64,000 nucleotides of DNA from an uncultured Gammaproteobacteria bacterium (GCA_964510885.1 CAZEDL010000002.1:64707-128706), one strand, 5' to 3'; numbered from the stretch's first letter, positions 4,415 to 59,082 are shown. The notes: generated by a model not told the origin, from the letters alone. Program-made: numbers and translations.

Positions 4415-5035
4415 CTAGTAGGCTACAGATTTAACGATCCGGCTGTCGCTCAGGGCTAGAACACACCCTGTCGCCTGATCTCGCAGATCCACAGAAGGCA
4501 CCGAGATATAGATGGCAGCGAACGGGAAGTAATTCCCTTTTGCATCCATCCAAATTTGGTGCAAACCCCTCCTCGGATCGACCGGCTGAGGGGTGGTCGC
4601 GCTTAGCGCATAGCTCTTGCCCTGCTGGACGCCGCCGACGATGCCGGCGATCGATACTGGAGGATTCCCTCCCATAATCCGCAGCTCTTTGATGACTGCC
4701 ACCGCGTTGGAACCGCTGACTTCGGCGTCGGTTGGGAAATAGAGCGTAAGCCCGGTGACTTCCCAGGCGGGACAGGCCTCGAAAAGCACTGTGTTGGGGA
4801 GCGCGCGCACCTCCAGCTTGTTTATGGCCTGGAACGTGTCTGTGCTGAGCGCGGAAAGCTGCATGCGGAACTCAGGGCGAAACAGCGCAGGCATACACTG
4901 CGCAGGGAACGAGCAAGCCATGTCGGGTGGCATGGCCATATCCTCCTCTATGCCCATATCGCCAACAGCATTCACACCCCCCTGCTCACAACCAACCAGT
5001 AAAGCGAGAAGGACGAAAGAAAAGTGAGCACGCAT
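4415..5035 (-). CDS. putative lipoprotein, unknown function (GC-rich gene)
   Basis: ORF 4415-5047; the likely true start is the ATG at 5035, preceded by GGAG, giving MRAHFSFVLLALLVGCEQ (signal peptide plus lipobox L-V-G-C). Codon usage is strongly GC-biased compared with the neighbouring rpoB and ftsK. Confidence 0.6.
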   Translation of the reverse strand: MRAHFSFVLLALLVGCEQGGVNAVGDMGIEEDMAMPPDMACSFPAQCMPALFRPEFRMQLSALSTDTFQAINKLEVRALPNTVLFEACPAWEVTGLTLYFPTDAEVSGSNAVAVIKELRIMGGNPPVSIAGIVGGVQQGKSYALSATTPQPVDPRRGLHQIWMDAKGNYFPFAAIYISVPSVDLRDQATGCVLALSDSRIVKSVAY

Positions 5036-5504
5036 CGGACACTCCAACTGTCAGCTTGCCAGGCTGATTATTTAAAAAGAACATGGCGTTCTTTTGGCAA
5101 ACTATATTTTTAGTAAAAACACAGTTTGCCAAAAGACTTAACCTTCGCCGCTTTTTACCACCTAATTTCACAAATGTCAATATGATGAGACTCAAACTTT
5201 CTTGTCCACACTTGACTTAGAATTTTAAAGGACTAAAATTAGACGGTTACATTATTCCACCACTGGGCTGCGGCAGGGTTGATGTCTCAACCGGATCGGA
5301 TTTTTGAAAACACTCTCTCCTCCCACAAAACAACACGCTTGTTTTTGGGCGAAGTTTTTGAGATTTGATTCGTTAGCTAAAACATGCACCTCTGCTCGCA
5401 GCTTAGCTGTGGAATAATACTTTAAAAACTAACCGGACTGGTTGGTTTTTTTGTTTTTTTGTAAAAATTTTTTCCTGCATATATATCCAGTTGCCGGATA
5501 ATCC

Positions 5505-5755
5505 ATCCTGTCATTCTGAGCGGCAGCGAAGAATCCCTTTCGCTCACCACCGTCAAGCTCTGAATTACGAAACTACAAATTTTGTCATTCTGAGTGAAAC
5601 GAAGAATCCCTGTCGGTCGGTATAGTGGCCAATTGGACAGAGATCCTTCACGTTCGTTCAGAGCCTGCCCTGAGGCGTCGCAGCCGAATGGGATGACAGG
5701 TGAATTTCGTAATTCAAAGCGTCAACAGATCCTTCGTTTCACTCAGGATGACAGA
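5505..5755. repeat. nested palindromic MITE/REP-like repeat element (GTCATTCTGAG...GAAGAATCC units)
   Basis: Direct copies at ~5510 and ~5584, with their inverse complements at ~5690-5753 (ggatgacaggtgaatttcgtaattc, ggatccttcgtttcactcaggatgacag). Related units recur at 22.98 kb, 26.59 kb and 48.34 kb. Confidence 0.75.
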
Positions 5756-5850
5756 GTATTTGGAACAAGGTGAATGGTAACAAAATATGTGCTATACTAT
5801 AGCTTCATATCAGCCTTTAAATACTTGGCCTTTTTAAGACAGCACCGCTT

Positions 5851-8223
5851 ATGTCACGTCGACGCGCGCATCAGCCTACATTATGGGAGAGAGTAAATTG
5901 GAACCCAGATATCAATCGCGGATTATTAGCAATTTTGCTGACGGTTACCGCTGGCATATCATTACTCAGTTTTTTTTCGCTGGCGGGAGTGGCAGGACAA
6001 TTTATTGACGCCCTATTGATCTTTATTTTTGGCAAGGTGCGATTTGTATTTCCGATTATCTTGCTGGTCATCGCCTATCTTATGACCAGACAGGCTGATT
6101 ATGATTATCGCCCCACGCACTGGCTTGGGAGCATCTTATTTTTCTTAAGTTTTAACGGCTTGATCCACCTCAGCAATCCAACCTACGAACATATTATTGC
6201 TGGTGACGGTGGCGGCGGACTCATCGGGCTCGCATTAGCCTACCCGCTCGCTACCTATATTGGGTATTGGGGCGGGCTGATTATTTTGATCGGACTCTTA
6301 CTGACAGCGGTGATATTTCTATTCAACACGACGCTGGCGGAACTGATTGATTTACACCGCAAATTATTCTTGGCGCTTGGAGGAGTGGGCAAATATGTAT
6401 TGTCATTTGTCGGCATCTTCAAACGAAGTCCGGTAGAAGGCACAATTGCCGAGGCAACAGAGCCGCACTTCTCGCGCGCACGCCTCGGTGAACATGAGGA
6501 TGATGAGGCTGAAATCGACGAAACGGTGGACGAAGACGGAGGGGATGATGAAGATGAAGAAGAGGATGAGGCGGTAAAAAAACCCCTGCCACGAGTGGTC
6601 AAGCCGACGCCGGTGGTCATGCCGATTGTCAAACCGGTGCATTACAAAGATTTGCCTCCGTTTGACTTATTGAATACTTCAAAAAGCAAACCAACCTCTG
6701 GAGATATCGAAGAGAATGGCACGATCATTGTGGAAACATTTAAAAATTTTGGTATCGATGTGACCATGTCAGAAGTGCGCGTTGGCCCGACGGTAACTCA
6801 ATACTCACTGAGTCCCGCCAAAGGGGTAAAACTCACCCGCATTACAGCGCTGAATAATGATCTGGCTTTGGCGCTGGCGGCGCACCCGATTCGTATCGAG
6901 GCCCCTATCCCAGGCAAATCACTGGTCGGTATTGAAGTACCGAATGAAAAAGTGGCCATGGTGAGCCTGCGCGAATTGTTGGAAAGCCCAGAATTCCAGA
7001 GCCGCAAACATTCTATGCACGTAGCACTTGGCAAGGATGTGTCGGGTAAAGTTTGGCTCGGTGATCTGCCGCGCATGCCACACCTTCTGATCGCTGGGGC
7101 GACGGGGGCTGGTAAAACAGTAGGTATCAACACCATTATTTTAAGTTTGCTGTATCAAAATACTCCGGCCACATTGCGGTTTATCATGGTGGATCCAAAA
7201 CGCGTGGAACTCACCCTCTACAATGGCATCCCCCATTTGTTGACACCGGTAATTACTGACGCCTTGAAAACGGTGAACGCGCTCAAGTGGACTATTCAAG
7301 AAATGGAACGTCGGTTTGACGTACTGGCAGCTGCTGGCAAACGCGATATTTTATCCTATAACTCTTCCGCGGCTGAACCACTCCCCTATTTAGTATTTGT
7401 AATTGACGAGCTTGCAGATCTCATGGCTACGTCGTCGAGTGAGGTGGAAGGCGGCATTATTCGCATTGCGCAAATGGCACGCGCGGTGGGTATTCATTTG
7501 ATCGTGGCCACGCAGCGCCCGAGTGTGGAAGTGATTACTGGTCTTATGAAAGCTAATATTCCGGGGCGCATTGCCTTCTCGGTGGCTTCGGTAATTGATT
7601 CACGAACTATTTTGGACTGCCCGGGCGCTGATCAGCTGGTGGGGCGTGGGGATATGCTGTTTTTGACGGCTGAATTATCGAAGCCGAAACGTATCCAGGG
7701 CGCGTATGTGTCAGAAGAAGAGATGAAGCGCGTGATCGATTATCTGAAAGGTGATGAACCGCCGGTGTACGATGATTCGATTGTGTCTAAAGGCGGCCAG
7801 AGTGGCGGTACGGCCAATATGTTTGGCGGGGCAAGCGATGATCAGGACCCGTTATTTATGGAAGCGAAACAGCTAGTTTTAGAAACCGGGAAAGCCAGCG
7901 CTTCGCTTTTGCAACGACGTATGAAAGTGGGGTATGCCCGCGCCGCTCGCTTGCTTGACGAACTAGAAGAGGCTGGTATAGTAGGTCCGGCCGATGGTGC
8001 GAAACCGCGCGAAGTGTTCACCGAACATTTGGCAAATGCGGCTCCGGAAATGCCAGAAGAAGAACAGACCATGGATCTCGGTGGCACCGTGTTTGATTCG
8101 CCAGTGGCAACAGAAGAGCCGACAGCCGAAGTTTCTGAGCCTACAGACGCACCAACTGAGACAGATCCGAAACCTGCGTCTAAAAAATCAGATGAGGATG
8201 AAGATTTCTTTGTCTCGTTATAG
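5851..8223 (+). CDS. ftsK: DNA translocase FtsK/SpoIIIE
   Basis: N-terminal TM segments, an acidic linker, Walker A GATGAGKT, an FtsK motor and a C-terminal gamma domain (LLQRRMKVGYARAARLLDELEEAGIVGP). Confidence 0.93.
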   Translation: MSRRRAHQPTLWERVNWNPDINRGLLAILLTVTAGISLLSFFSLAGVAGQFIDALLIFIFGKVRFVFPIILLVIAYLMTRQADYDYRPTHWLGSILFFLSFNGLIHLSNPTYEHIIAGDGGGGLIGLALAYPLATYIGYWGGLIILIGLLLTAVIFLFNTTLAELIDLHRKLFLALGGVGKYVLSFVGIFKRSPVEGTIAEATEPHFSRARLGEHEDDEAEIDETVDEDGGDDEDEEEDEAVKKPLPRVVKPTPVVMPIVKPVHYKDLPPFDLLNTSKSKPTSGDIEENGTIIVETFKNFGIDVTMSEVRVGPTVTQYSLSPAKGVKLTRITALNNDLALALAAHPIRIEAPIPGKSLVGIEVPNEKVAMVSLRELLESPEFQSRKHSMHVALGKDVSGKVWLGDLPRMPHLLIAGATGAGKTVGINTIILSLLYQNTPATLRFIMVDPKRVELTLYNGIPHLLTPVITDALKTVNALKWTIQEMERRFDVLAAAGKRDILSYNSSAAEPLPYLVFVIDELADLMATSSSEVEGGIIRIAQMARAVGIHLIVATQRPSVEVITGLMKANIPGRIAFSVASVIDSRTILDCPGADQLVGRGDMLFLTAELSKPKRIQGAYVSEEEMKRVIDYLKGDEPPVYDDSIVSKGGQSGGTANMFGGASDDQDPLFMEAKQLVLETGKASASLLQRRMKVGYARAARLLDELEEAGIVGPADGAKPREVFTEHLANAAPEMPEEEQTMDLGGTVFDSPVATEEPTAEVSEPTDAPTETDPKPASKKSDEDEDFFVSL

Positions 8224-9057: not shown

Positions 9058-10140
9058 ATGCCTAAAGCGACGATATCGGAGGAGGTCAAAGAAAAATTGA
9101 AGGCCGCTGAAACAGCGATTGAACAGATCAAGAGCCGATTTGGCGATGGCGCCATTATGAAATTCGGTGAAGCCAAAGCCATGCAGGTGGAAGCAGTCCC
9201 GACCGGATGTTTATCACTCGACATCGCGCTTGGCGTAAAAGGAGTGCCGCGCGGACGCATCATTGAAGTGTACGGCCCGGAAGCATCTGGTAAAACTACA
9301 CTGGCTCAGCACATTGTGTCGGAAGTGCAAAAAATGGGCGGGATCGCCGCCTTTGTGGATGCTGAACATGCACTCGACCCGGACTATGCTAGAAAAATCG
9401 GAGTAAAGGTGGATGAATTATTAATCTCGCAGCCAGACACCGGTGAACAGGCGCTTGAAATCGTAGAAACGCTAGTGCGTTCGAATGCGGTGGATGTGGT
9501 GGTGGTGGACTCGGTGGCCGCGCTCGTACCGAAAGCTGAAATCGAAGGCGAAATGGGTGATTCACATATGGGCCTCCAGGCCCGCCTGATGAGCCAGGCG
9601 CTGCGTAAACTGACTGGTATTGTCAGTAAATCAAAAACCTTAGTTATCTTTATCAACCAAACTCGGCAGAAAATCGGTATCGTGTTTGGCAACCCAGAAA
9701 CGACCACCGGTGGAGTAGCTCTCAAATTTTACTCCTCGGTGCGTATTGAGGTTCGCCGCGCGGCTCAAATTAAACAAGGCGACAAAATTATTGGCAACCG
9801 CGTAAAAGTTAAAATTGTAAAAAATAAAGTAGCCGCACCATTCCGCACCTGCGAATTCGATATCATGTATAACGAAGGTATTTCGGTAGCGGGTGACGTG
9901 CTTGATATCGCCACACTCTACAAAGTTATCGACAAGCGCGGTAATTCATACATCTTCGGCGAAGAAAAATTGGGCGTGGGGCGCGAAAATGCTAAATCTT
10001 TCTTGAAAGAACACCAACCGATTTTGAACAAGATCAAAAAACAAGTGTGGGAAGTGGTGGAACGCGGCGAAGCGCCAGATGAAGAGCCGGGTGAAAAAGG
10101 GAAGGACACGAGCAATGAAGAGGTGACGCCGCAAGAATAG
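9058..10140 (+). CDS. recA: recombinase RecA
   Basis: [13 protein letters not shown] Walker A, L1/L2 loops and overall RecA colinearity. Confidence 0.97.
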
Positions 10141-10160
10141 GAAAAATTAAAAATATTTAA

Positions 10161-10190
10161 AACAACTCCGTAATAACGGAGTTGTTTTTA
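10161..10190 (+). terminator. rho-independent terminator
   Basis: aacaactccgt-aata-acggagttgtt followed by TTT. Confidence 0.7.
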
Positions 10191-10324
10191 TGTATCAATC
10201 TCCCTATCGAACTAAGAGAAATTGATAGATTTAGGTGCTTGAGAATGGACGAATTGTCCGCAACGGCACCCACGTCGCTTTACCTTTAGTGACCATTGCG
10301 ATCACTGCTCATCACGCCGCCCTG

Positions 10325-11882
10325 CTAGGCGACGCGCTTTGCCCGATACTGCTGAAATGCGTCGATGACGCAGCCATTGTACTGGGGGTAGGCCCCGGTG
10401 CAACCGATGAGCTCGATCATCTCTCCCCAGTAAGGGCGCCCTTCGGGCGAGGCCACGATCTCGCCAGACCACCACACGGCCAGGAAGGTCTGGACACGCT
10501 TGCCCGAGCCGTCTGCCGGGCCGTCGTACAGGAGAATGGCCCGATCATCGGTCAACAGGCCGGTCTCTTCGCGCAGCTCACGGGCTGCTGCCTCGAGCGG
10601 GTCCTCATCACTGAGCTCGTGCTTGCCCGCCGGCAGAGCAATACCGCCATCCGCCCGCTCAAACAGGAGGACCTCGTTCGTCGCCTCGTTGTAGACGAGC
10701 ATGCAGGCGGCGAAGACCGGATCAGTGGGTGCCGCCACCGTGAAGTCAGCGTGGAGCTTACGGTAGGGCGGCAAGGGCCCGTGAGAGGTGGTGCCGAAGC
10801 GCAGCTTGTGCTGCGGCAGGAACGCCACCTGGCCGTTCGCGAGCGCGATGGCGTGGAAGAGCTCGTTGGCGGTGTGCCACTCAACGGTGAACAGGTACAC
10901 GCCTGACAGCCACAGCCCCTGCCGCACGAAGTAGGCGTCGACACTACCCTGCAGCGCCTGATGAACATGGACAACGATCTCGTTCGTGGGGCAGTTCTTG
11001 TAGATGAGATCTTCGAGACCGAGGTTCGGCTCGAGCAGGCCATGGGCAGGGTCGGCGAGCAGAAGGGCGGACGGCGGCAGATAGGAAAAGATGCCGCCGT
11101 TGTCCAGGTAGACCTGAAACGTGATGGCTTCGCCCTGATACGACGAGACGCTGAAGGCCATGCCGGGTTCGTACTGGCCCTGGTGAGACGGGTCCATGTC
11201 GTAGAGGTACTCCGCGCGGACCCAGACGCGCAACGGAGTGATGTCCGCGTGGATGAAGCCGCGAACGGGCGGCTGCCCCGGGAGCACGGGCAAGCTCCTC
11301 TCCACGAACACCTGGGTGAAGATGGTGACCTCGTCGAGACTCCAGCAGGGCTGAGCGTCGGGCGGTCCGGGGATCTGATCGCGCTCGCTGCACGGACCGG
11401 ACTGACCGGTGAGCGCGTCGAGGCGAATCTCGTAGAGGTGCTGCTTGGGCATGATGCCGCTGGCCACGAGCCAGTGCAAGTACTCCACGATCACCTTGAT
11501 GCCGCCGGCTTCGAACGGGGTGGGAATGAGCGGGTTGGCGTCGTAGTGCAGCACGATGACCAGGTCGCGCTCCGGGCGGAGCAAGTGAACGAGGTCATGC
11601 GGGTTACGCAGGCCTTCGATCACGCAGCCGCCAGAGCGGACAGGGTAGCGCGCGCGGATGAAGTCGACGCAGGCCGCGGGGTTGTCGGCAAGCTGCGTCT
11701 GGGAGAAGCGGGTGATCGCCTCGACATAGGCCTGGCGACCGTGCTCGGGCCGCGGGCCCTGGTAGCGCTGCCTCACCCACTCTGAGGCGGGGATATGTGT
11801 CAGGCCATGCTCTGCGGCGAGAGCCTTGGCCAGCGTCGTCTTGCCGACCTGACTCCCGCCGATTACGAGGATATTGCGTTGC
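10325..11882 (-). CDS. P-loop kinase (NadR ribosylnicotinamide-kinase/AAA_28-like) - unknown central domain - Nudix hydrolase fusion (GC-rich gene)
   Basis: Likely start is MQRNILVIGGSQVGKTTLAKALAAEHGL...ASEWVRQRY; this mirrors the NadR RNK pattern GGESSGKS...AWEYGREF. The C-terminus carries a Nudix box (GKHELSDEDPLEAAARELREETGL). The ORF-track extension to 12103 is probably read-through of stop-poor GC-rich DNA. Confidence 0.7.
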
Positions 11883-11894
11883 ATGTCTGTCTCC

Positions 11895-12476
11895 TCAGCA
11901 GGGGTTGACCGCGCCCTTGAACTTGTTCTTCTTAGTGCTCCACTGGGCGATGATAGCGAACACCATGTGCTTCTCGGGCACGAAGGTCGCCGAGGTCTTG
12001 CGCACCACGATGCCGAGACCCTCGCGGCGGCTGCCGTCCGGGTACTCGACCATGATGTACTTGACCGAGAACTCATCGCCTGGGAACGCCGACACTTCCA
12101 CATAGCGATCGAAGAACCAGCCGGCCTCAGTCACCGGTTTGCAGTCACCAAAGCTGATGGGGGTTCCCCAGGTGACTCGCGTTTCATGGACGGCCTCGAA
12201 GCCGTACCCGAACTCGAACGCCACTCTCTCATGTAAGTACTGTCCGTCGCAGTCCATGCTGAGACGCAGGTTCTTGCGCAGGGTTCCCGAGGCATGACGC
12301 TCGATGAACTCTCCCCGCGACATGAGCCGCGCCGCAACGCGCCGGGCGAACGACTTGCACTTGCGGACGGCTGGATCCATCGGGCACTTCTGGGTCGCCC
12401 GGCTTTGCCCGATGCGGATAGACGGGGTGACTGGCTGAAGTCCTTTTTGCTCTTTCTTTCTATCTTTGTTCTTCAT
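11895..12476 (-). CDS. hypothetical basic protein, operon partner of the kinase-Nudix gene (GC-rich)
   Basis: 193-aa ORF ending 13 nt upstream of the kinase-Nudix start, with the same skewed GC-rich composition. No recognisable motif. Confidence 0.5.
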   Translation of the reverse strand: MKNKDRKKEQKGLQPVTPSIRIGQSRATQKCPMDPAVRKCKSFARRVAARLMSRGEFIERHASGTLRKNLRLSMDCDGQYLHERVAFEFGYGFEAVHETRVTWGTPISFGDCKPVTEAGWFFDRYVEVSAFPGDEFSVKYIMVEYPDGSRREGLGIVVRKTSATFVPEKHMVFAIIAQWSTKKNKFKGAVNPC

Positions 12477-12750
12477 GGCGTCTGTCCTCCTGACAGCTTG
12501 ATGGTTTGGACCAATGTAAATAGCTGGCTTTCAAAAAAATCGTTCGATATACAAAATAATCGAACAGTTGATTGTAGCAAAATCAGTAAATTTTGTCTAG
12601 AATGAATCTCGTGATGAATATACTTGACTACTACTCAAAGAATTACTATGGTATACTAGTTTTTCTAATGATCATTCCTCAAAATCGTATTTGAAATATT
12701 TTTAAACTATTTTAGGTAATACCAACGTTAGCTATTTTAATTTTTTCTCT

Positions 12751-13512: not shown

Positions 13513-13523
13513 ATTAATTTCAA

Positions 13524-13555
13524 AACAATCCCGCTAATCCGGGATTGTTTTTTAT
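13524..13555 (+). terminator. rho-independent terminator
   Basis: aacaatcccg-ctaat-cgggattgtt followed by TTTTTT. Confidence 0.7.
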
Positions 13556-13565
13556 TTAGAGAGTA

Positions 13566-13593
13566 TTGAAATTTTTTGCTAACTACGTATAAT
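13566..13593 (+). promoter_or_regulatory. sigma-70-like promoter (TTGAAA-16-TATAAT)
   Basis: ttgaaa at 13566-71 and tataat at 13588-93. It lies inside the ORF-track N-terminal extension of the next gene, so the real start is probably the ATG at 13621. Confidence 0.5.
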
Positions 13594-13620
13594 AGATTAA
13601 TCAATTCTTACATTACCTCT

Positions 13621-14343
13621 ATGACTAACGAAGAAAAAAAAACTGCCCAGCAAGCTGCCGAGAGAAACGCCAAAACCAAGCGACTGTTACAACGCCTAAT
13701 GTTATGGATTGGGGTACTTGGCATAATAGGATTGGCTATTTATGGCTTGATGCGTCTTGGTGCCAATACTCGGAGCGGCTCTACGCTGCAACCTGGCCAG
13801 AGCATCCCGGCAATTGACGCCAAAGACTCTACGCGCGGCAGCAGTATTGCCAAACTTAGCCTCGTTGAGTACTCAGATTTCCAGTGTCCGGCCTGTGCCA
13901 GCTATGAGCCGCTGCTGCAAGAGGTGCAAAAACAATATGCTGGCAGCGTATTATTCGCGTATCGCCACTTCCCTCTGCCACAGCATCAAAATGCGCTGAT
14001 TGCGGCGACGGCGACCGAAGCAGCCGGCAAACAAGGAAAATTCTGGGAGATGCACGATCTGCTATTTGCACGGCAAGGTGACTGGGCTAACGTGTCAAAA
14101 TCTCGGATTCAGGAGGTCTTTGTGTCTTACGCTAGCCAGATTGCGTTAAACGCTGAGCAATTTAAAAAAGATTTGGCTGATCCCGCCACCGCGACTAAAG
14201 TCACGTCTGATCAGACCATTGGCGCTGCCGCCGGTATCGACAGCACCCCCACCTTTTTCTTGAACGGCAAACTAATCACTCCGAATCCAGCTAATCTTGA
14301 AGAGTTCAAAGAGTTGATTGAGGCGGCGTTAAAAAACAATTAG
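13621..14343 (+). CDS. DsbA-family thiol:disulfide oxidoreductase (second copy)
   Basis: TM anchor and YSDFQCPACASY. The start is revised from 13576 because of the promoter placement. Confidence 0.8.
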   Translation: MTNEEKKTAQQAAERNAKTKRLLQRLMLWIGVLGIIGLAIYGLMRLGANTRSGSTLQPGQSIPAIDAKDSTRGSSIAKLSLVEYSDFQCPACASYEPLLQEVQKQYAGSVLFAYRHFPLPQHQNALIAATATEAAGKQGKFWEMHDLLFARQGDWANVSKSRIQEVFVSYASQIALNAEQFKKDLADPATATKVTSDQTIGAAAGIDSTPTFFLNGKLITPNPANLEEFKELIEAALKNN

Positions 14344-29878: not shown

Positions 29879-30214
29879 CTAAGAGGAGGCGCTTGCCTCA
29901 CTATGCACCCCTTCCCATCCGATCAAGGCTCGTTTGCGGCTACTCCCCCATCGATATTGTCCAATTAGGCCCGTACTTTTAATCACGCGGTGACAGGGTA
30001 TAAGCACTGCCACTGGATTGTCCCCAATCGCGGTTCCAACCGCGCGTTGTGCTGCTGGTCGACTGACCGCGCCGGCTACCCGGGCGTAGGAACACAGCTG
30101 CCCTTCCGGAATAGTGAGCAGTGCTTCCCAGACTTTTAGTTGAAACGAGGTTCCTTTCAGGTGAAGTCTTATTTTATCTGTAGGAGCCAATTGAGTAGTT
30201 AAAAATTTTTGCAC
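29879..30214 (-). CDS. ogt: methylated-DNA-protein-cysteine methyltransferase, C-terminal catalytic domain
   Basis: PCHRVI active site with FQLKVWEAL...IPEG. A short out-of-frame ORF at 30244-30342 (MNHYTTVAKALEFIASESKRQPSFEYSGHKPI) looks like the missing N-terminal portion and may be frameshifted. Confidence 0.8.
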   Translation of the reverse strand: MQKFLTTQLAPTDKIRLHLKGTSFQLKVWEALLTIPEGQLCSYARVAGAVSRPAAQRAVGTAIGDNPVAVLIPCHRVIKSTGLIGQYRWGSSRKRALIGWEGVHSEASASS

Positions 30215-30461
30215 TTGCTGGTGACTATCCGTAATTCCAGCTACTAAATTGGCTTGTGGCCAGAGTACTCGAAGCTGGGCTGCCGCTTGGATTCACTGGC
30301 AATAAACTCGAGGGCTTTAGCGACGGTAGTATAGTGATTCATAGTGAATAGTTTAAGCCCCCTACTCTTTACTAATCGCATTCAACTGGAAAACCGAATC
30401 TTACTGATTTTTTAATCAGACTGTCTAGCCTACTTAAAAAAAATAAAATTTATAACTCCGA

Positions 30462-30890
30462 CTATTTTTTTCTACTATCTTTAGCCTGTGCTACCAAACT
30501 ACCAAGAGCTAACTGATCAGTATCGTGGGCTACATATCCTTGATATATTTTATCAAGTAATTCGGCGGCCAACCATCGGTCACCCAGATTACTGTCGGGG
30601 GCAGCTGAGGGTAGCGGCCCATCTCCGTGTATTAACCGCATGCTATTGGCATAATGCAACTCTGCTTTTATGGTTGCTATCCGGCCCGAGAGTAAATCTG
30701 GCATAGTTACTTCAAGCAGATTTAATGCATTAGTCAAGAATTGAAATAATTCTTGATCGCTATAACCAGTCTTATAATCTCTTTGCTGACGCATTACAGT
30801 ATATATTTTTTTTAAGACTGCTTCTGATATTTCTCCGGTTGGCTCTCCTATACCCTTGAATTCACCACTTTTCATATTACACTTTGGCAA
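30462..30890 (-). CDS. hypothetical protein
   Basis: 142-aa ORF in an AT-rich stretch with no motif recognised. Confidence 0.45.
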   Translation of the reverse strand: MPKCNMKSGEFKGIGEPTGEISEAVLKKIYTVMRQQRDYKTGYSDQELFQFLTNALNLLEVTMPDLLSGRIATIKAELHYANSMRLIHGDGPLPSAAPDSNLGDRWLAAELLDKIYQGYVAHDTDQLALGSLVAQAKDSRKK

Positions 30891-31187
30891 CTAATTATTT
30901 TGTTAATTAACTTTTACCACTTTACCATAGATTTTATGACTTGGTCTAGCCAGCAAATTATTAAAACAGATTATAATTTTACAGTTAAAAAGGAGAATCA
31001 ATATTTTATTTGATACTTATCAATTCGGTTAATGGTGTAGAATACAAAAACAACCTTCGGCAGAAAGTTGTTTTTGGGAGATGCGGACTTATGCTAAGGT
31101 TATTGTTAAGATGTAGTCCGCCGCACATCCCTTCTTAGCTATTTGATTCGGCCCTGTAACCTGTAAAGTCTAAAGGCAGAACGAGGG

Positions 31188-56775: not shown

Positions 56776-57357
56776 TTAGGAGTTGAGGTCGAAGCATTCA
56801 AACGGAGCAACTGTAAACTTCGCTTCCGCATTATGCTCGTGCTTCTCCCCCATGCCCACAATAACCCAGAGCTTTTCCTGCCAAACTACCACCATCCCTA
56901 CTTCTAGATTGTCCTGTTCCAGGATCTCCCACACATCATAGGCGGCTTCCAAATACTTAGGCAGGAGGACGGCTTTCCTATCTCCATATCCATCCACTGA
57001 TCCCAAGTAGAAGACGGGGATACCCGGTTTCTCGGCCGCTCCGATATTTGCTTGAGCGAGTTGACCAATGCTCTTTGCTCGCTTAGCCTCTTCGGCTGCC
57101 AGCCCGCGAAGCGTAGAGAGCGGCGTGATGACTTGCTGAGACGCTGGTCCCCAGAAGAAATACTCCGATAATTCCCCAGCGATCCGCTTGCCGATCGAGT
57201 TCGAGACATCCAGCGCGGCGAGAGCTGCTCGGAGTTGGGCATCCTGGATCTTGGCGATTGCCGACCAGTTCTTGTTGAAACGGGGTTTTTCTGTACCGCT
57301 CAATTTATGCTCCTGCGTGGGTTGATCCGAAATACCAGAAACCTGACGAAGCTTCAT
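56776..57357 (-). CDS. hypothetical protein
   Basis: 193-aa ORF with no recognised motif. Confidence 0.45.
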   Translation of the reverse strand: MKLRQVSGISDQPTQEHKLSGTEKPRFNKNWSAIAKIQDAQLRAALAALDVSNSIGKRIAGELSEYFFWGPASQQVITPLSTLRGLAAEEAKRAKSIGQLAQANIGAAEKPGIPVFYLGSVDGYGDRKAVLLPKYLEAAYDVWEILEQDNLEVGMVVVWQEKLWVIVGMGEKHEHNAEAKFTVAPFECFDLNS

Positions 57358-57613
57358 TGTGTACTCCTCGGGTGTCTGTCACCCTGGATACAGTAAAGTA
57401 TTCATATAAAAATTTTCCTTACTTAATCCAAGGTGACAATTTTTAAAGAGCTAGCTCAAAATTGTTTTTCGGTTTTCAATCTTGAACAGGCCATTATATC
57501 TAAAAAAACGCAAAATGTCAATAATATTTATACTATTTTAGATACTTTTTCTATTTTTTGTTGATTTTAAAATAGAAATATGATATATAATATTTTGACA
57601 CATATAAGGCACC

Positions 57614-57649
57614 GACAAACATTTATCAAATATTGCACAAATATTTGTC
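57614..57649. promoter_or_regulatory. inverted repeat GACAAACATTT-N14-AAATATTTGTC, candidate operator upstream of the TrmB-like regulator
   Basis: A 10/11 match inverted repeat in the extremely AT-rich 5' region of the 57694 gene. Confidence 0.4.
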
Positions 57650-57693
57650 TAATATTTTCAATATTGGCTTAAGATTTTCTCACCGCAAAAGAC

Positions 57694-58422
57694 ATGTCTG
57701 AACTTCATGATCAACTAAAACTAATCGGCTTGAACCATTCCGAAATAACGGTCTATTTATACTTGCTCGAAAACGGAGTCTCGACTCCCCCAATTGTTTC
57801 ACGTGGAACAAAAATTGCCCGAACCAATTGTTATAATATTTTACAATCGCTCAAGGACAAAGATTTAATTGAAGAGCATGTTGTCAAAAACAAAAAGACA
57901 TACCTCGCGAGTGATCCAGAATCGTTACTGAGGTCATGGGAGAAAAAAAGAGATACCATCAGCCAGATTATCCCTGATTTACGCGGGCTATATACCACTC
58001 AAAAAAATAAACCAAAGATTCGTTTTTATGAAGGTGCTGATCAGATAAAAGAAATTTATCACGAATCTCTGAACGCGCAAGAAATAATCGCCTTAGGTTC
58101 AACCAGTAAAATCGAGCAATTACTACCTGGATTCTTTGACAACTACTTTAATCAAGTTAAGGAGCGTGGAATTATTTTTTATGACCTGCTCACGAGCGAT
58201 TCCAAAAAAATTGCCGAGGATGACAAAAACCTATTACGAGGATTGTATAATTTTAAAATTTTACCCGCTGAATTTAAAGATTCACCAACTGACATACTAA
58301 TTTGGGATAACTCAATCGGTTTATTGACTTTAGAAGAACCAGTATTTGCCACCGTATTAACAAACCGACATCTAGCAAATACGTTCAAAATGATTTTTAT
58401 GCTAATTAGAAATCGTATTTGA
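57694..58422 (+). CDS. TrmB-family transcriptional regulator
   Basis: N-terminal wHTH (IGLNHSEITVYLYLLENGVSTPPIVSRGTKIARTNCYNILQSLKDKDLIEE) plus a TrmB C-terminal effector domain. Confidence 0.65.
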   Translation: MSELHDQLKLIGLNHSEITVYLYLLENGVSTPPIVSRGTKIARTNCYNILQSLKDKDLIEEHVVKNKKTYLASDPESLLRSWEKKRDTISQIIPDLRGLYTTQKNKPKIRFYEGADQIKEIYHESLNAQEIIALGSTSKIEQLLPGFFDNYFNQVKERGIIFYDLLTSDSKKIAEDDKNLLRGLYNFKILPAEFKDSPTDILIWDNSIGLLTLEEPVFATVLTNRHLANTFKMIFMLIRNRI

Positions 58423-58546
58423 ATGTTTCACGTGGAACATAGGCAGAACATGGGGATAAAATGGAGTTTGTTATAAAATTTCGCTAAATTTAGCATCTCA
58501 GGCTTATTTTCTCTAATTTTAGAGCAATTTTGCGTTTATATAAAAA

Positions 58547-58570
58547 ATTGTATACAATATTGTATACAAT
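58547..58570. promoter_or_regulatory. tandem duplicated palindrome ATTGTATACAAT x2, candidate regulator binding site
   Basis: Two abutting copies of a 12-bp perfect palindrome in the AT-rich region upstream of the GC-rich 58771 ORF. Confidence 0.4.
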
Positions 58571-58770
58571 TTATTAACTATTTGGCTTAGTTATTAACAA
58601 AGTTATCCACATTTTATCCTATAAAAGTACACACTACTCAATACTTTTATTAACACTCTTCGATTACAAAATAGATCTAAAAGGATACAGGTACCGACTC
58701 AACTCACTTTTTAAGTCACGTAAGTGCGGGCACAGCCGGGCGTCAGCTACTGGTATATAAGGAGGCCCCC

Positions 58771-59082
58771 ATGACGTTGTCTGTGCAAATCACCCTCAGT
58801 GTGCCTGAACGCCCGTTAATGATCGGGAAAGAAGGGCGGCTGGCCTTCGATTTCCTCGACAATTGCCTGCGGGCAACCACACCTCTTGCCGTGCTCGACA
58901 GCGGAGATATCGGGGCCTTCCGGACCCTGGCCGATAAGTGCGATGCCGCGATCACCGTGATCGAGACGGCAGAGCAGGGTACCTTCGCCCTGACTGTTGA
59001 AGTCGCGGTAAGCCCAGTAGGGCAGATGCGGCTGAGCGAGCCAAGCCGGGAAAGCGATGAATATGGCCCACAGATGTGGTGA
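58771..59082 (+). CDS. hypothetical protein (GC-rich gene)
   Basis: 103-aa ORF with a strong SD (AAGGAGG-N6-ATG) and a sharp GC-content step-up compared with the upstream AT-rich DNA. Confidence 0.5.
   Translation: MTLSVQITLSVPERPLMIGKEGRLAFDFLDNCLRATTPLAVLDSGDIGAFRTLADKCDAAITVIETAEQGTFALTVEVAVSPVGQMRLSEPSRESDEYGPQMW

Follow-up and report, generated by a model that had tools for sequence, protein, structure and literature searches.

In this study, we analyzed a 64,000-nucleotide stretch of DNA (hereafter the window, with positions counted from its first letter) from an uncultured Gammaproteobacteria bacterium (GCA_964510885.1, CAZEDL010000002.1:64707-128706). Between its recA and dsbA genes lies a GC-rich island of two genes, which encode a large protein of three domains (P-loop kinase, central domain and Nudix hydrolase) and a smaller partner protein. 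A segment of ~2.6 kb has been inserted here into the genome of a bacterium with ~48% GC, and we conclude with high confidence that the island arrived by horizontal transfer and is one copy of an undescribed module that is conserved and phage-linked. The features of the locus are listed below (NMP, nucleoside monophosphate; L and P numbers denote loci and proteins).

10141-12750: segment inserted between the recA stop codon and the dsbA start codon; empty site in the relative L041
10159-10188: perfect 13-bp hairpin between A and T runs (inverted repeat I9, 13/13 paired, 4-nt loop)
10221-12500: GC-rich core, taken as foreign DNA; left edge at the end of homology with L050, right edge where GC content falls below 0.35
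10221-10324, minus strand: conserved non-coding tail downstream of the large gene; aligns with L050:1081-1190, which follows the sister gene
10325-11884, minus strand: large gene (519 aa), in which kinase, central and Nudix domains are fused
10328-10723, minus strand: Nudix hydrolase domain (aa 388-519), with the Nudix box at 10556-10627
10787-11260, minus strand: central beta-rich domain (aa 209-366), belonging to the phage family phrog_3704
11417-11884, minus strand: NMP-kinase-like P-loop domain (aa 1-156), with Walker A motif GGSQVGKT at 11837-11860
11895-12476, minus strand: partner gene (193 aa), an orphan-fold, conserved core component
12486-12491, minus strand: ribosome-binding site AGGAGG, 9 nt upstream of the partner ATG, read from the sequence
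12571-12599, minus strand: promoter-like site (TAGACA, 17 nt, TACAAT, with TG), 10/12 positions in a consensus scan

An inserted segment between recA and dsbA

The GC content of positions 10230-12480 was 0.632, compared with 0.477 in the remainder of the window. This corresponded to z = 6.7 over the 2,250-bp intervals that do not overlap the island (their maximum being 0.512), and the twelve highest-GC intervals of 2,250 bp all overlapped the island. Tetranucleotide usage also set the island apart (L1 distance to the remainder of the window, z = 9.5), and GC content at third codon positions (GC3) reached 0.84 in the large gene and 0.79 in the partner gene, against 0.52 in recA and 0.50 in dsbA. 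GC content dipped to 0.26-0.34 on the left flank (10126-10200) and to 0.22-0.34 on the right flank (12501-12700), and was down to ~0.3 within 100 nt on each side of the island. Open reading frames (ORFs) were found in many frames of the island, as is expected because of its high GC content. Thus, a preliminary description of this DNA, which had claimed a GC-rich island at 10230-12480 with an abrupt drop to AT-rich flanks and ORFs open in nearly every frame, and had suggested computing GC, GC3 and tetranucleotide statistics, was upheld on these points, the island being an outlier on all three measures. Elsewhere in the window, stretches of low GC content (0.39-0.42) were present at 5001-6000, 30001-31000 and 57001-59000.

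The corresponding site without the island was found in a relative (L041, a contig of GCA_964585245.1), whose RecA clusters with the RecA of the window at an identity of at least 90%. Both contigs have the same gene order (FtsK, helix-turn-helix protein, RecA, DsbA, second DsbA and VKOR), with 70-83% nucleotide identity between their flanking genes. The distance from the recA stop codon to the dsbA ATG is 34 nt in the relative versus 2,610 nt in the window. In addition, a metagenome scan detected a fragment of a sister gene in a groundwater metagenome (L050), which was 68% identical over residues 160-517 of the large protein. GC content and GC3 of this sister gene were 0.60 and 0.73, and the GC content of its downstream tail was 0.46, the same GC step as in the island. 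The window and L050 could be aligned for ~105 nt beyond the stop codon of the large gene and diverged at ~10221. Because their homology stops there, the alignment places the left edge of the mobile DNA at ~10221, within 10 nt of the start coordinate (10230) given in the preliminary description.

Several other observations were made around the insertion. The conserved tail of ~105 nt could be left over from a donor gene, or it could be a small element with a regulatory or structural role. No tRNA gene was present near the island (Rfam found only two tRNAs, and the nearest are at 38.8 and 48.7 kb), no integrase was encoded among the genes of the inserted segment, and the repeat scan found no convincing direct repeat flanking the island. 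AT-rich imperfect inverted repeats occurred near the insertion ends, at 10139-10162 and 12690-12748 (16 nt, 94%; 14 nt, 93%). Terminal inverted repeats (I4 and I8) were considered and rejected as probably due to chance, being of low complexity and similar to the relative's own spacer. Between the two DsbA-like genes (13521-13804 in the window), the relative has two extra genes without a counterpart in the window (L041:7883-9577), one for a 127-aa HIT-family protein and one, on the opposite strand, for a 184-aa protein, which made this a second variable spot beside the island.

The two genes of the island, both on the minus strand and 10 nt apart, form an intact and self-contained operon, as expected from the two co-directional, near-abutting genes noted previously. 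The start of the large gene was set at MQRNILVIGG, where the N-termini of its homologues begin; the mechanical ORF starts at 12103, has 592 aa and overlaps the partner gene. The promoter-like site at 12571-12599 lies in AT-rich DNA upstream of the operon and, by its match to the consensus, is a putative promoter. The hairpin at 10159-10188 was also picked up by the terminator scan and is likely, judging from its sequence, a bidirectional terminator common to recA and the convergent island operon. The first ~17 codons of the partner gene (12426-12476; residues 1-17) are AT-rich and rich in lysine (MKNKDRKKEQKG...) and have no counterpart in other members of the family; local DNA may have supplied this N-terminal extension once the island was inserted.

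It could be argued that the island is an assembly chimera or a contamination from a high-GC genome, since most homologues of the module are located in high-GC chromosomes of Myxococcota and Planctomycetota, where the composition of the module matches that of the host. However, a chimera would yield one junction, whereas the operon is complete and has host-like DNA on both sides, each flank being collinear with the relative. A strong ribosome-binding site and an AT-rich promoter-like region precede its first gene, and it shares a likely terminator with recA. Both the GC step and the conserved 3' tail recur in the sister copy (L050), and other metagenome-assembled genomes (MAGs) labelled as Patescibacteria carry the module as well. 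Because of the empty site in the relative, the two host-like junctions and the intact operon, we consider the island an insertion, and an artefact of assembly or contamination appears extremely improbable. The horizontal acquisition proposed in the preliminary description thus stands on the empty site and on a comparison of 24 loci: the GC content of the module minus that of its flanks was +0.158 in the window and at most 0.043 in either direction in the others, so that the window was the only locus whose module had a GC content unlike its flanks.

Architecture and distribution of the module

The AlphaFold model of the large protein (predicted local distance difference test, pLDDT, 80) contained three confident domains with disordered linkers between them, in agreement with the P-loop kinase, unrecognized middle and Nudix domain described previously. 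The fold search was run with the whole three-domain model, and its list was filled by Nudix and kinase matches. The kinase domain combines a Walker A motif with an NMP-kinase fold and is predicted to transfer a phosphoryl group to an NMP. Its best sequence relatives in PDB were adenylate and UMP-CMP kinases. The domain is short (~156 aa), and its family-specific invariant residues are W36, R93-N-P, D97 and D107. The earlier assignment to NadR/AAA_28 could not be maintained in view of these relatives and of the AAA_28 (PF13521) match, which remained below threshold (20.8 bits versus a cutoff of 27, E 4.9e-4) and was comparable to those of AAA_18 and AAA_33. Some family members exceeded the Pfam threshold for AAA_33, a family that includes polynucleotide kinases.

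For the C-terminal domain, the claimed Nudix box was confirmed. PF00293 matched residues 392-475 with 42.3 bits (cutoff 21.1), the Nudix fold was present, and the box (GKHELSDEDPLEAAARELREETGL, residues 420-443) fits EX7REUXEEXGU exactly, with a G-to-E spacing of 6 rather than 5. The closest Nudix structures were of the MutT, RppH and ApnA types. Among Nudix subfamilies, SQPWPFPxS is characteristic of NADH pyrophosphatases, and a proline ~16 residues after the box of ADP-ribose enzymes. The SQPWPFP motif was absent from this domain, and its nearest proline was at +13 after the box.

The partner protein was modelled with higher confidence (pLDDT 90; predicted template modelling score 0.81), yet the model had no match among PDB or viral folds, and its sequence had none in Pfam, NCBIfam or PDB. 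The partner family has more than 554 members, mostly of 168 aa, with 45-70% identity across phyla and 35 invariant residues across 38 diverse sequences; none of the 120 family members listed had a precomputed Pfam domain. The term 'small basic protein' used for it in the preliminary description is right for the copy in the window (isoelectric point, pI, 9.7) and wrong for the family (median pI 6.0).

To describe the distribution of the module, we built hidden Markov models (HMMs) for its four parts and ran them over every fetched locus, with simple ORF calls as genes. Partner, kinase and central domain co-occurred in all 24 non-redundant cellular and metagenomic loci. In all loci examined, the partner gene came first, upstream of the genes for kinase and central domain, so that the pairing of two genes seen in the window is a general one. 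Kinase and central domain were fused in most loci, and the three parts were separate genes in five (L012, L029, L031, L035 and L036; hhalign E values for the split L012 were 1e-77 for the partner and 1e-39 for the kinase). In a Planctomycetota MAG (L023:5878-7606), the order was seemingly permuted to partner-central-kinase, the last two in different frames, which may be a true rearrangement or a frameshift. The Nudix domain is an optional part: it was fused in 6-7 of ~52 kinase-central representatives and absent from most family members, and only two (P0002 and P0003) of the 11 full-length relatives of the large protein found by a word-indexed search had it. Two short-ORF cases were noted in SR1 or uncultured MAGs, in which the partner and central matches were split under translation table 11 (L038:3353-4574 and L039:5878-7048). 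Candidate division SR1 reads UGA as a sense codon; if these genomes do so, such broken ORFs are expected, and the module is probably intact in both. One protein (P0254, 482 aa) had a GIY-YIG domain ahead of a kinase part without P-loop region; this fusion was not used, its probable cause being either the insertion of a homing endonuclease or an artefact of gene calling.

The module is rare, with 23 loci among 185,579 species-representative genomes. Carriers were Polyangiaceae, Kofleriaceae, Planctomycetota, Cyanobacteriota, Obscuribacterales, several lineages labelled as Patescibacteria and bins labelled as Methanosarcinales, and one of them is a cultured cyanobacterium (Tumidithrix elongata BACA0141, L029). 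Eight viral contigs of IMG/VR also had the module, four of them 200-543 kb long. Together with the large phage family to which the central domain belongs (see below), this bears out the phage link suggested in the preliminary description. One of the IMG/VR contigs (L047) ends after the partner gene, and three (L045, L048 and L049) contain partner and central domain without an adjacent module-type kinase; because of the latter, partner and central domain look like the minimal core. In nearly all cases, a P-loop kinase of adenylate-kinase-like sequence accompanies this core, and a nucleoside triphosphate (NTP) pyrophosphohydrolase is recurrently attached or adjacent.

In a neighbor-joining tree of partner proteins, the copy in the window grouped with those of L001 and L004 (a 200-kb viral contig) and not with the copies labelled as Patescibacteria. 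L001 is an integrase-bearing element of 67% GC with small, unannotated, co-directional genes, and its copy of the module has the Nudix domain. Thus, the closest sampled relatives of the island operon are the L050 fragment (68%), the L001 copy and the copy on the 200-kb viral contig. No homologue of the partner was found in PLSDB plasmids or phage records, and the island DNA had no match to phage records.

The central domain and its phage homologues

The preliminary description had stated that the central region matched nothing its author recognized. This was true of Pfam and NCBIfam, and of PDB sequences, but the region matched phrog_3704, a phage family labelled 'ferredoxin' (E 3.8e-20). Homologues were detected by tblastn in 83-113 phage records (cyanophage, pelagiphage and Flavobacterium-phage), as proteins of ~212 aa variously annotated as PurM, ferredoxin or hypothetical. 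More than 3,400 proteins were recovered with the profile of the domain. In an exhaustive HMMER search, there were 392 representatives at 50% clustering, and about two thirds of the best 150 of these 392 were standalone forms. Conserved polar residues were S248, Y249, T255, C298, Y330, D/E335, N340, H344, H359 and K360, and the median pI was 5.9 family-wide. An internal duplication was considered and rejected (hhalign probability between the two halves, 2%). Examples of the phage genes (T4-GC 171) annotated as 'purM' or 'ferredoxin' are as follows.

L017:4980-5624: Syn19_033
L054:3486-4154: PSSM2_175
L011:3995-4642: HTVC027P gp11

These names do not reflect homology. Escherichia coli PurM matched the central-domain profile with an hhalign probability of 0.07% and the Syn19 'purM' protein with a BLASTP E value of 1.7, whereas the latter protein matched the profile of the central-domain family with a probability of 99.8%. 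None of 11 central-domain family members had an AIRS Pfam match. On the other hand, the authentic PurM of phage P-SSM2 is 45% identical to that of E. coli, and authentic phage purM is a separate gene of 331 aa. By these sequence comparisons, the central-domain family is unrelated to authentic PurM and the phage names are annotation artefacts. In P-SSM2 the central-domain gene overlaps the start of authentic purM, and for this reason the PurM label probably spread from that phage; in S-8S55 the gene adjoins a 2Fe-2S ferredoxin gene. A functional tie to authentic PurM was also considered. It was rejected because the overlap was confined to the P-SSM2 lineage, the two genes being ~120 kb apart in ACG-2014j, S-CAM4 and ACG-2014i, so that adjacency in P-SSM2 accounts for the name and not for the function. 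At least part of the cyanophage and pelagiphage 'purM' is therefore an unrelated domain, and ocean surveys of purM may mix two genes.

Possible roles and comparison with known systems

The census of neighboring genes covered ~30 loci, and Pfam and PADLOC scans were performed on 126 neighbor proteins from 24 loci; results given here refer to the 25 most frequent families (for PADLOC, 25 of 60 matching families). Several genes near the module are related to free nucleotides. Ham1 proteins are non-canonical purine NTP pyrophosphatases (ITP/XTP pyrophosphatase family), and their genes were located directly downstream of the module on the same strand in L031 and L036, with a 4-nt overlap in the latter. 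The ED(T/V)SL catalytic motif was kept in all three aligned Ham1 proteins (L012, L031 and L036), with an RdgB sequence as the reference of the alignment. In L045 and L048, where no module-type kinase was detected, a thymidine kinase gene (PF00265, E 2e-44) follows the central-domain gene, and free-standing Nudix genes, which belong to the same BLAST cluster as the Nudix-bearing fusions, are located 1.3-1.6 kb from the module. In phage S-CAM22, a MazG-like pyrophosphatase was annotated under the central-domain match. Module neighborhoods were otherwise unrelated between loci. Some neighbors are of the phage counter-defence type, including an ART-PolyVal ADP-ribosyltransferase on a 543-kb contig (L046:10460-11419). 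L045 and L048 have a DNA methylase gene upstream and an S-adenosylmethionine (SAM)-lyase-like gene downstream; those of L045 encode a DUF3293/SAM-lyase-like protein and an N6/N4 DNA methylase (L045:9636-10322 and L045:7058-7960), which are typical phage counter-defence genes.

Unrelated NTP pyrophosphohydrolases thus recur beside an NMP-type or nucleoside kinase. For this reason, we tentatively suggest, at somewhat short of an even chance, that the module is derived from phages and acts on non-canonical free nucleotides by cycling between NTP and NMP. Its substrate would be free nucleotides rather than nicotinamide adenine dinucleotide (NAD). An NTP would be hydrolysed to the NMP by the pyrophosphohydrolase (Nudix here, Ham1-type elsewhere). 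This NMP would then be bound or chemically altered by the partner and central domain, and the product would be phosphorylated again by the dedicated NMP-type kinase. In this way a non-canonical nucleotide, probably a purine, might be synthesized or its turnover controlled, with a role in phage-host conflict or in management of the nucleotide pool. Partner and central domain are mildly acidic across their families and hence unlike typical nucleic-acid binders.

Several points weigh against this proposal. No enzymatic activity could be assigned to the partner or central domain, no known nucleotide-modifying enzyme such as a thymidylate-synthase-like hydroxymethylase was found in the module, and the kinase domain has no obvious LID arginines. 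The Ham1 genes of L012 and L046 are nearby but on the opposite strand. Moreover, genes of nucleotide metabolism are in general frequent in the early-gene clusters of phages, which makes the adjacency of thymidine kinase, Nudix or MazG genes there weak evidence. The remaining points concern neighbors and fusions suggestive of nucleic acids instead. In two viral lineages, the gene right after that of the central domain encodes an RNA ligase (PF09414); these are L049 and, independently, L042/L043, where an HD_4 gene comes next. In L012 the module is followed by a Metallophos gene, and in one representative (P0323, 640 aa) the kinase-central core is fused to a C-terminal RNase HII domain.

Based on these observations, the main rival is that the module heals or repairs nucleic-acid ends, mainly of RNA. 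The kinase would then be a polynucleotide 5'-kinase, which the AAA_33 matches above threshold in some family members would fit, the Nudix domain would trim 5' triphosphate or capped ends, and the partner and central domain would recognize or process damaged ends, with a ligase acting in trans or encoded next door. The module would then be similar to the Pnk-plus-Rnl systems with which phages counter the anticodon nucleases of their hosts. Sets of kinase, HD or calcineurin-like phosphoesterase and RNA ligase have been described for jumbo phages (PMC7824862). On the other hand, the substrates of Ham1 and thymidine kinase are free nucleotides or nucleosides and not polymer ends, the kinase sequence is adenylate-kinase-like, both orphan families are acidic and the RNase HII fusion is a single case. 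In addition, no RNA ligase was present among the three nearest genes on either side in the 24 cellular and metagenomic loci, including the window, in the Pfam results listed. An end-healing phosphatase was likewise absent from these loci, beside the Metallophos gene noted for L012. Repair of RNA ends appears unlikely. Rather unlikely, too, is a new conflict system (anti-phage defence, counter-defence or similar to toxin-antitoxin pairs) that would make or destroy a nucleotide signal or chain terminator, with the standalone central domain of phages as decoy or sponge. A conflict system would agree with the very patchy spread over at least five phyla with clear horizontal transfer, with the occurrence on viral and integrase-bearing elements, with the self-contained nature of the module among non-conserved neighbors and with the ART-PolyVal gene that adjoins it in L046; Kongming also provides a precedent for immune signalling that depends on a nucleotide kinase and HAM1 (bioRxiv 10.1101/2024.12.20.629578). 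However, PADLOC-DB 2.0 gave only P-loop-level noise for the module (E at least 0.005) and nothing for the partner, and there was no enrichment of defence islands, since all PADLOC matches among the 126 neighbors, in the families listed, came from five Ser/Thr protein kinases. The defence cargo expected in the preliminary description was therefore not recovered. Likewise, no recognizable effector (nuclease, SIR2, TIR or pore-forming protein) and no PLSDB plasmid with the module were found, the catalytic Asp that is changed in the Kongming sensor is present in the adjacent Ham1 proteins, and the partner is better conserved than the large protein, unlike an antitoxin.

The preliminary description had favored NAD or ADP-ribose chemistry, by which a NadR-like ribosylnicotinamide kinase and a Nudix hydrolase would act on NAD, nicotinamide mononucleotide (NMN) or ADP-ribose. 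The weak AAA_28 match agrees with this idea, but AAA_18 and AAA_33 equal it, and the neighbors of the kinase in PDB are adenylate kinases and not NadR. Most family members lack the Nudix domain, Ham1 or thymidine kinase takes the equivalent place elsewhere, and the Nudix domain of the window is closest to MutT, RppH and ApnA and lacks the NADH-pyrophosphatase motif. The 25 most frequent Pfam families of the 126 neighbors included neither NMN adenylyltransferase nor Nampt, although rare single matches are possible. NAD chemistry is thus largely refuted and very improbable.

A further possibility, which we regard as doubtful, is that partner and central domain are two unrecognized enzyme or sensor folds that form the core of a new nucleotide-based system across phages (huge and marine) and a scattered set of bacteria (Myxococcota, Planctomycetota, Cyanobacteriota and Patescibacteria). 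Such a system, if real, could for example serve to make or detect a non-canonical purine nucleotide with a use in conflicts between phage and host, and the abundant auxiliary gene 'purM' of cyanophages would be its free-standing viral component rather than a gene of purine biosynthesis. Nothing about the kinase and Nudix domains is unusual, but the libraries queried contain no description of the partner, of the central domain or of their obligatory association, and the module as a whole has none in Pfam, NCBIfam, PADLOC or PDB. Because it recurs in huge phages and hard-to-culture phyla, solving its chemistry could reveal a new nucleotide activity, for which the cultured carrier Tumidithrix elongata BACA0141 offers an experimental handle. 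The island itself is a clean case of transfer, in which a compact phage-linked module entered a lower-GC genome and a relative keeps the empty site, making the event unambiguous and datable.

Comparison with known systems revealed partial similarities. NadR combines NMN adenylyltransferase with ribosylnicotinamide kinase, and NadM combines adenylyltransferase with Nudix; the large protein is similar in having a P-loop kinase or Nudix domain within a multidomain, nucleotide-related protein (PMC9503650), but it has no HIGH-motif adenylyltransferase and its AAA_28 match is below threshold. RNA repair sets of phages and bacteria (T4 Pnk and Rnl; Pnkp/Hen1) share with some viral or metagenomic loci a P-loop kinase with RNA ligase and HD or calcineurin-like phosphoesterase neighbors, whereas the module in the window is without ligase, phosphatase or methyltransferase, and the association was seen in only 2-3 lineages. 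Kongming consists of the deaminase KomA, the HAM1-like sensor KomB (Asp changed to His) and the SIR2 protein KomC (bioRxiv 10.1101/2024.12.20.629578). It is similar in involving a nucleotide kinase, a HAM1-family protein and a non-canonical purine nucleotide. However, no deaminase or SIR2 was detected in the module, its kinase is encoded by the module itself, and where defensive HAM1s have His, the Ham1 proteins beside the module have the catalytic Asp. Identity with Kongming was therefore rejected, as deaminase, dead HAM1 and SIR2 were all missing.

Adenylate and other NMP kinases share the NMP-kinase fold and an adenylate-kinase-like sequence with the kinase of the module, although the copy in the window is under the Pfam thresholds, short and without recognizable LID arginines. 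The cyanophage and pelagiphage 'PurM' or 'ferredoxin' proteins (T4-GC 171, phrog_3704) are true homologues of the central domain, but they stand alone (~212 aa), without kinase or partner. Finally, the modified-nucleotide pathway of phage T4 comprises the dCTPase gp56, the dCMP hydroxymethylase gp42 and the dNMP kinase gp1. Unlike this pathway, the module has no thymidylate-synthase-like or known base-modifying enzyme, its middle components are orphan families, its pyrophosphatase is optional and most of its carriers are cellular genomes. It is similar to the T4-type pathway in that an NTP pyrophosphohydrolase and a dedicated NMP-type kinase are arranged around one or more additional enzymes, in its association with phages and, in L045 and L048, in its location by a thymidine kinase and a DNA methylase.

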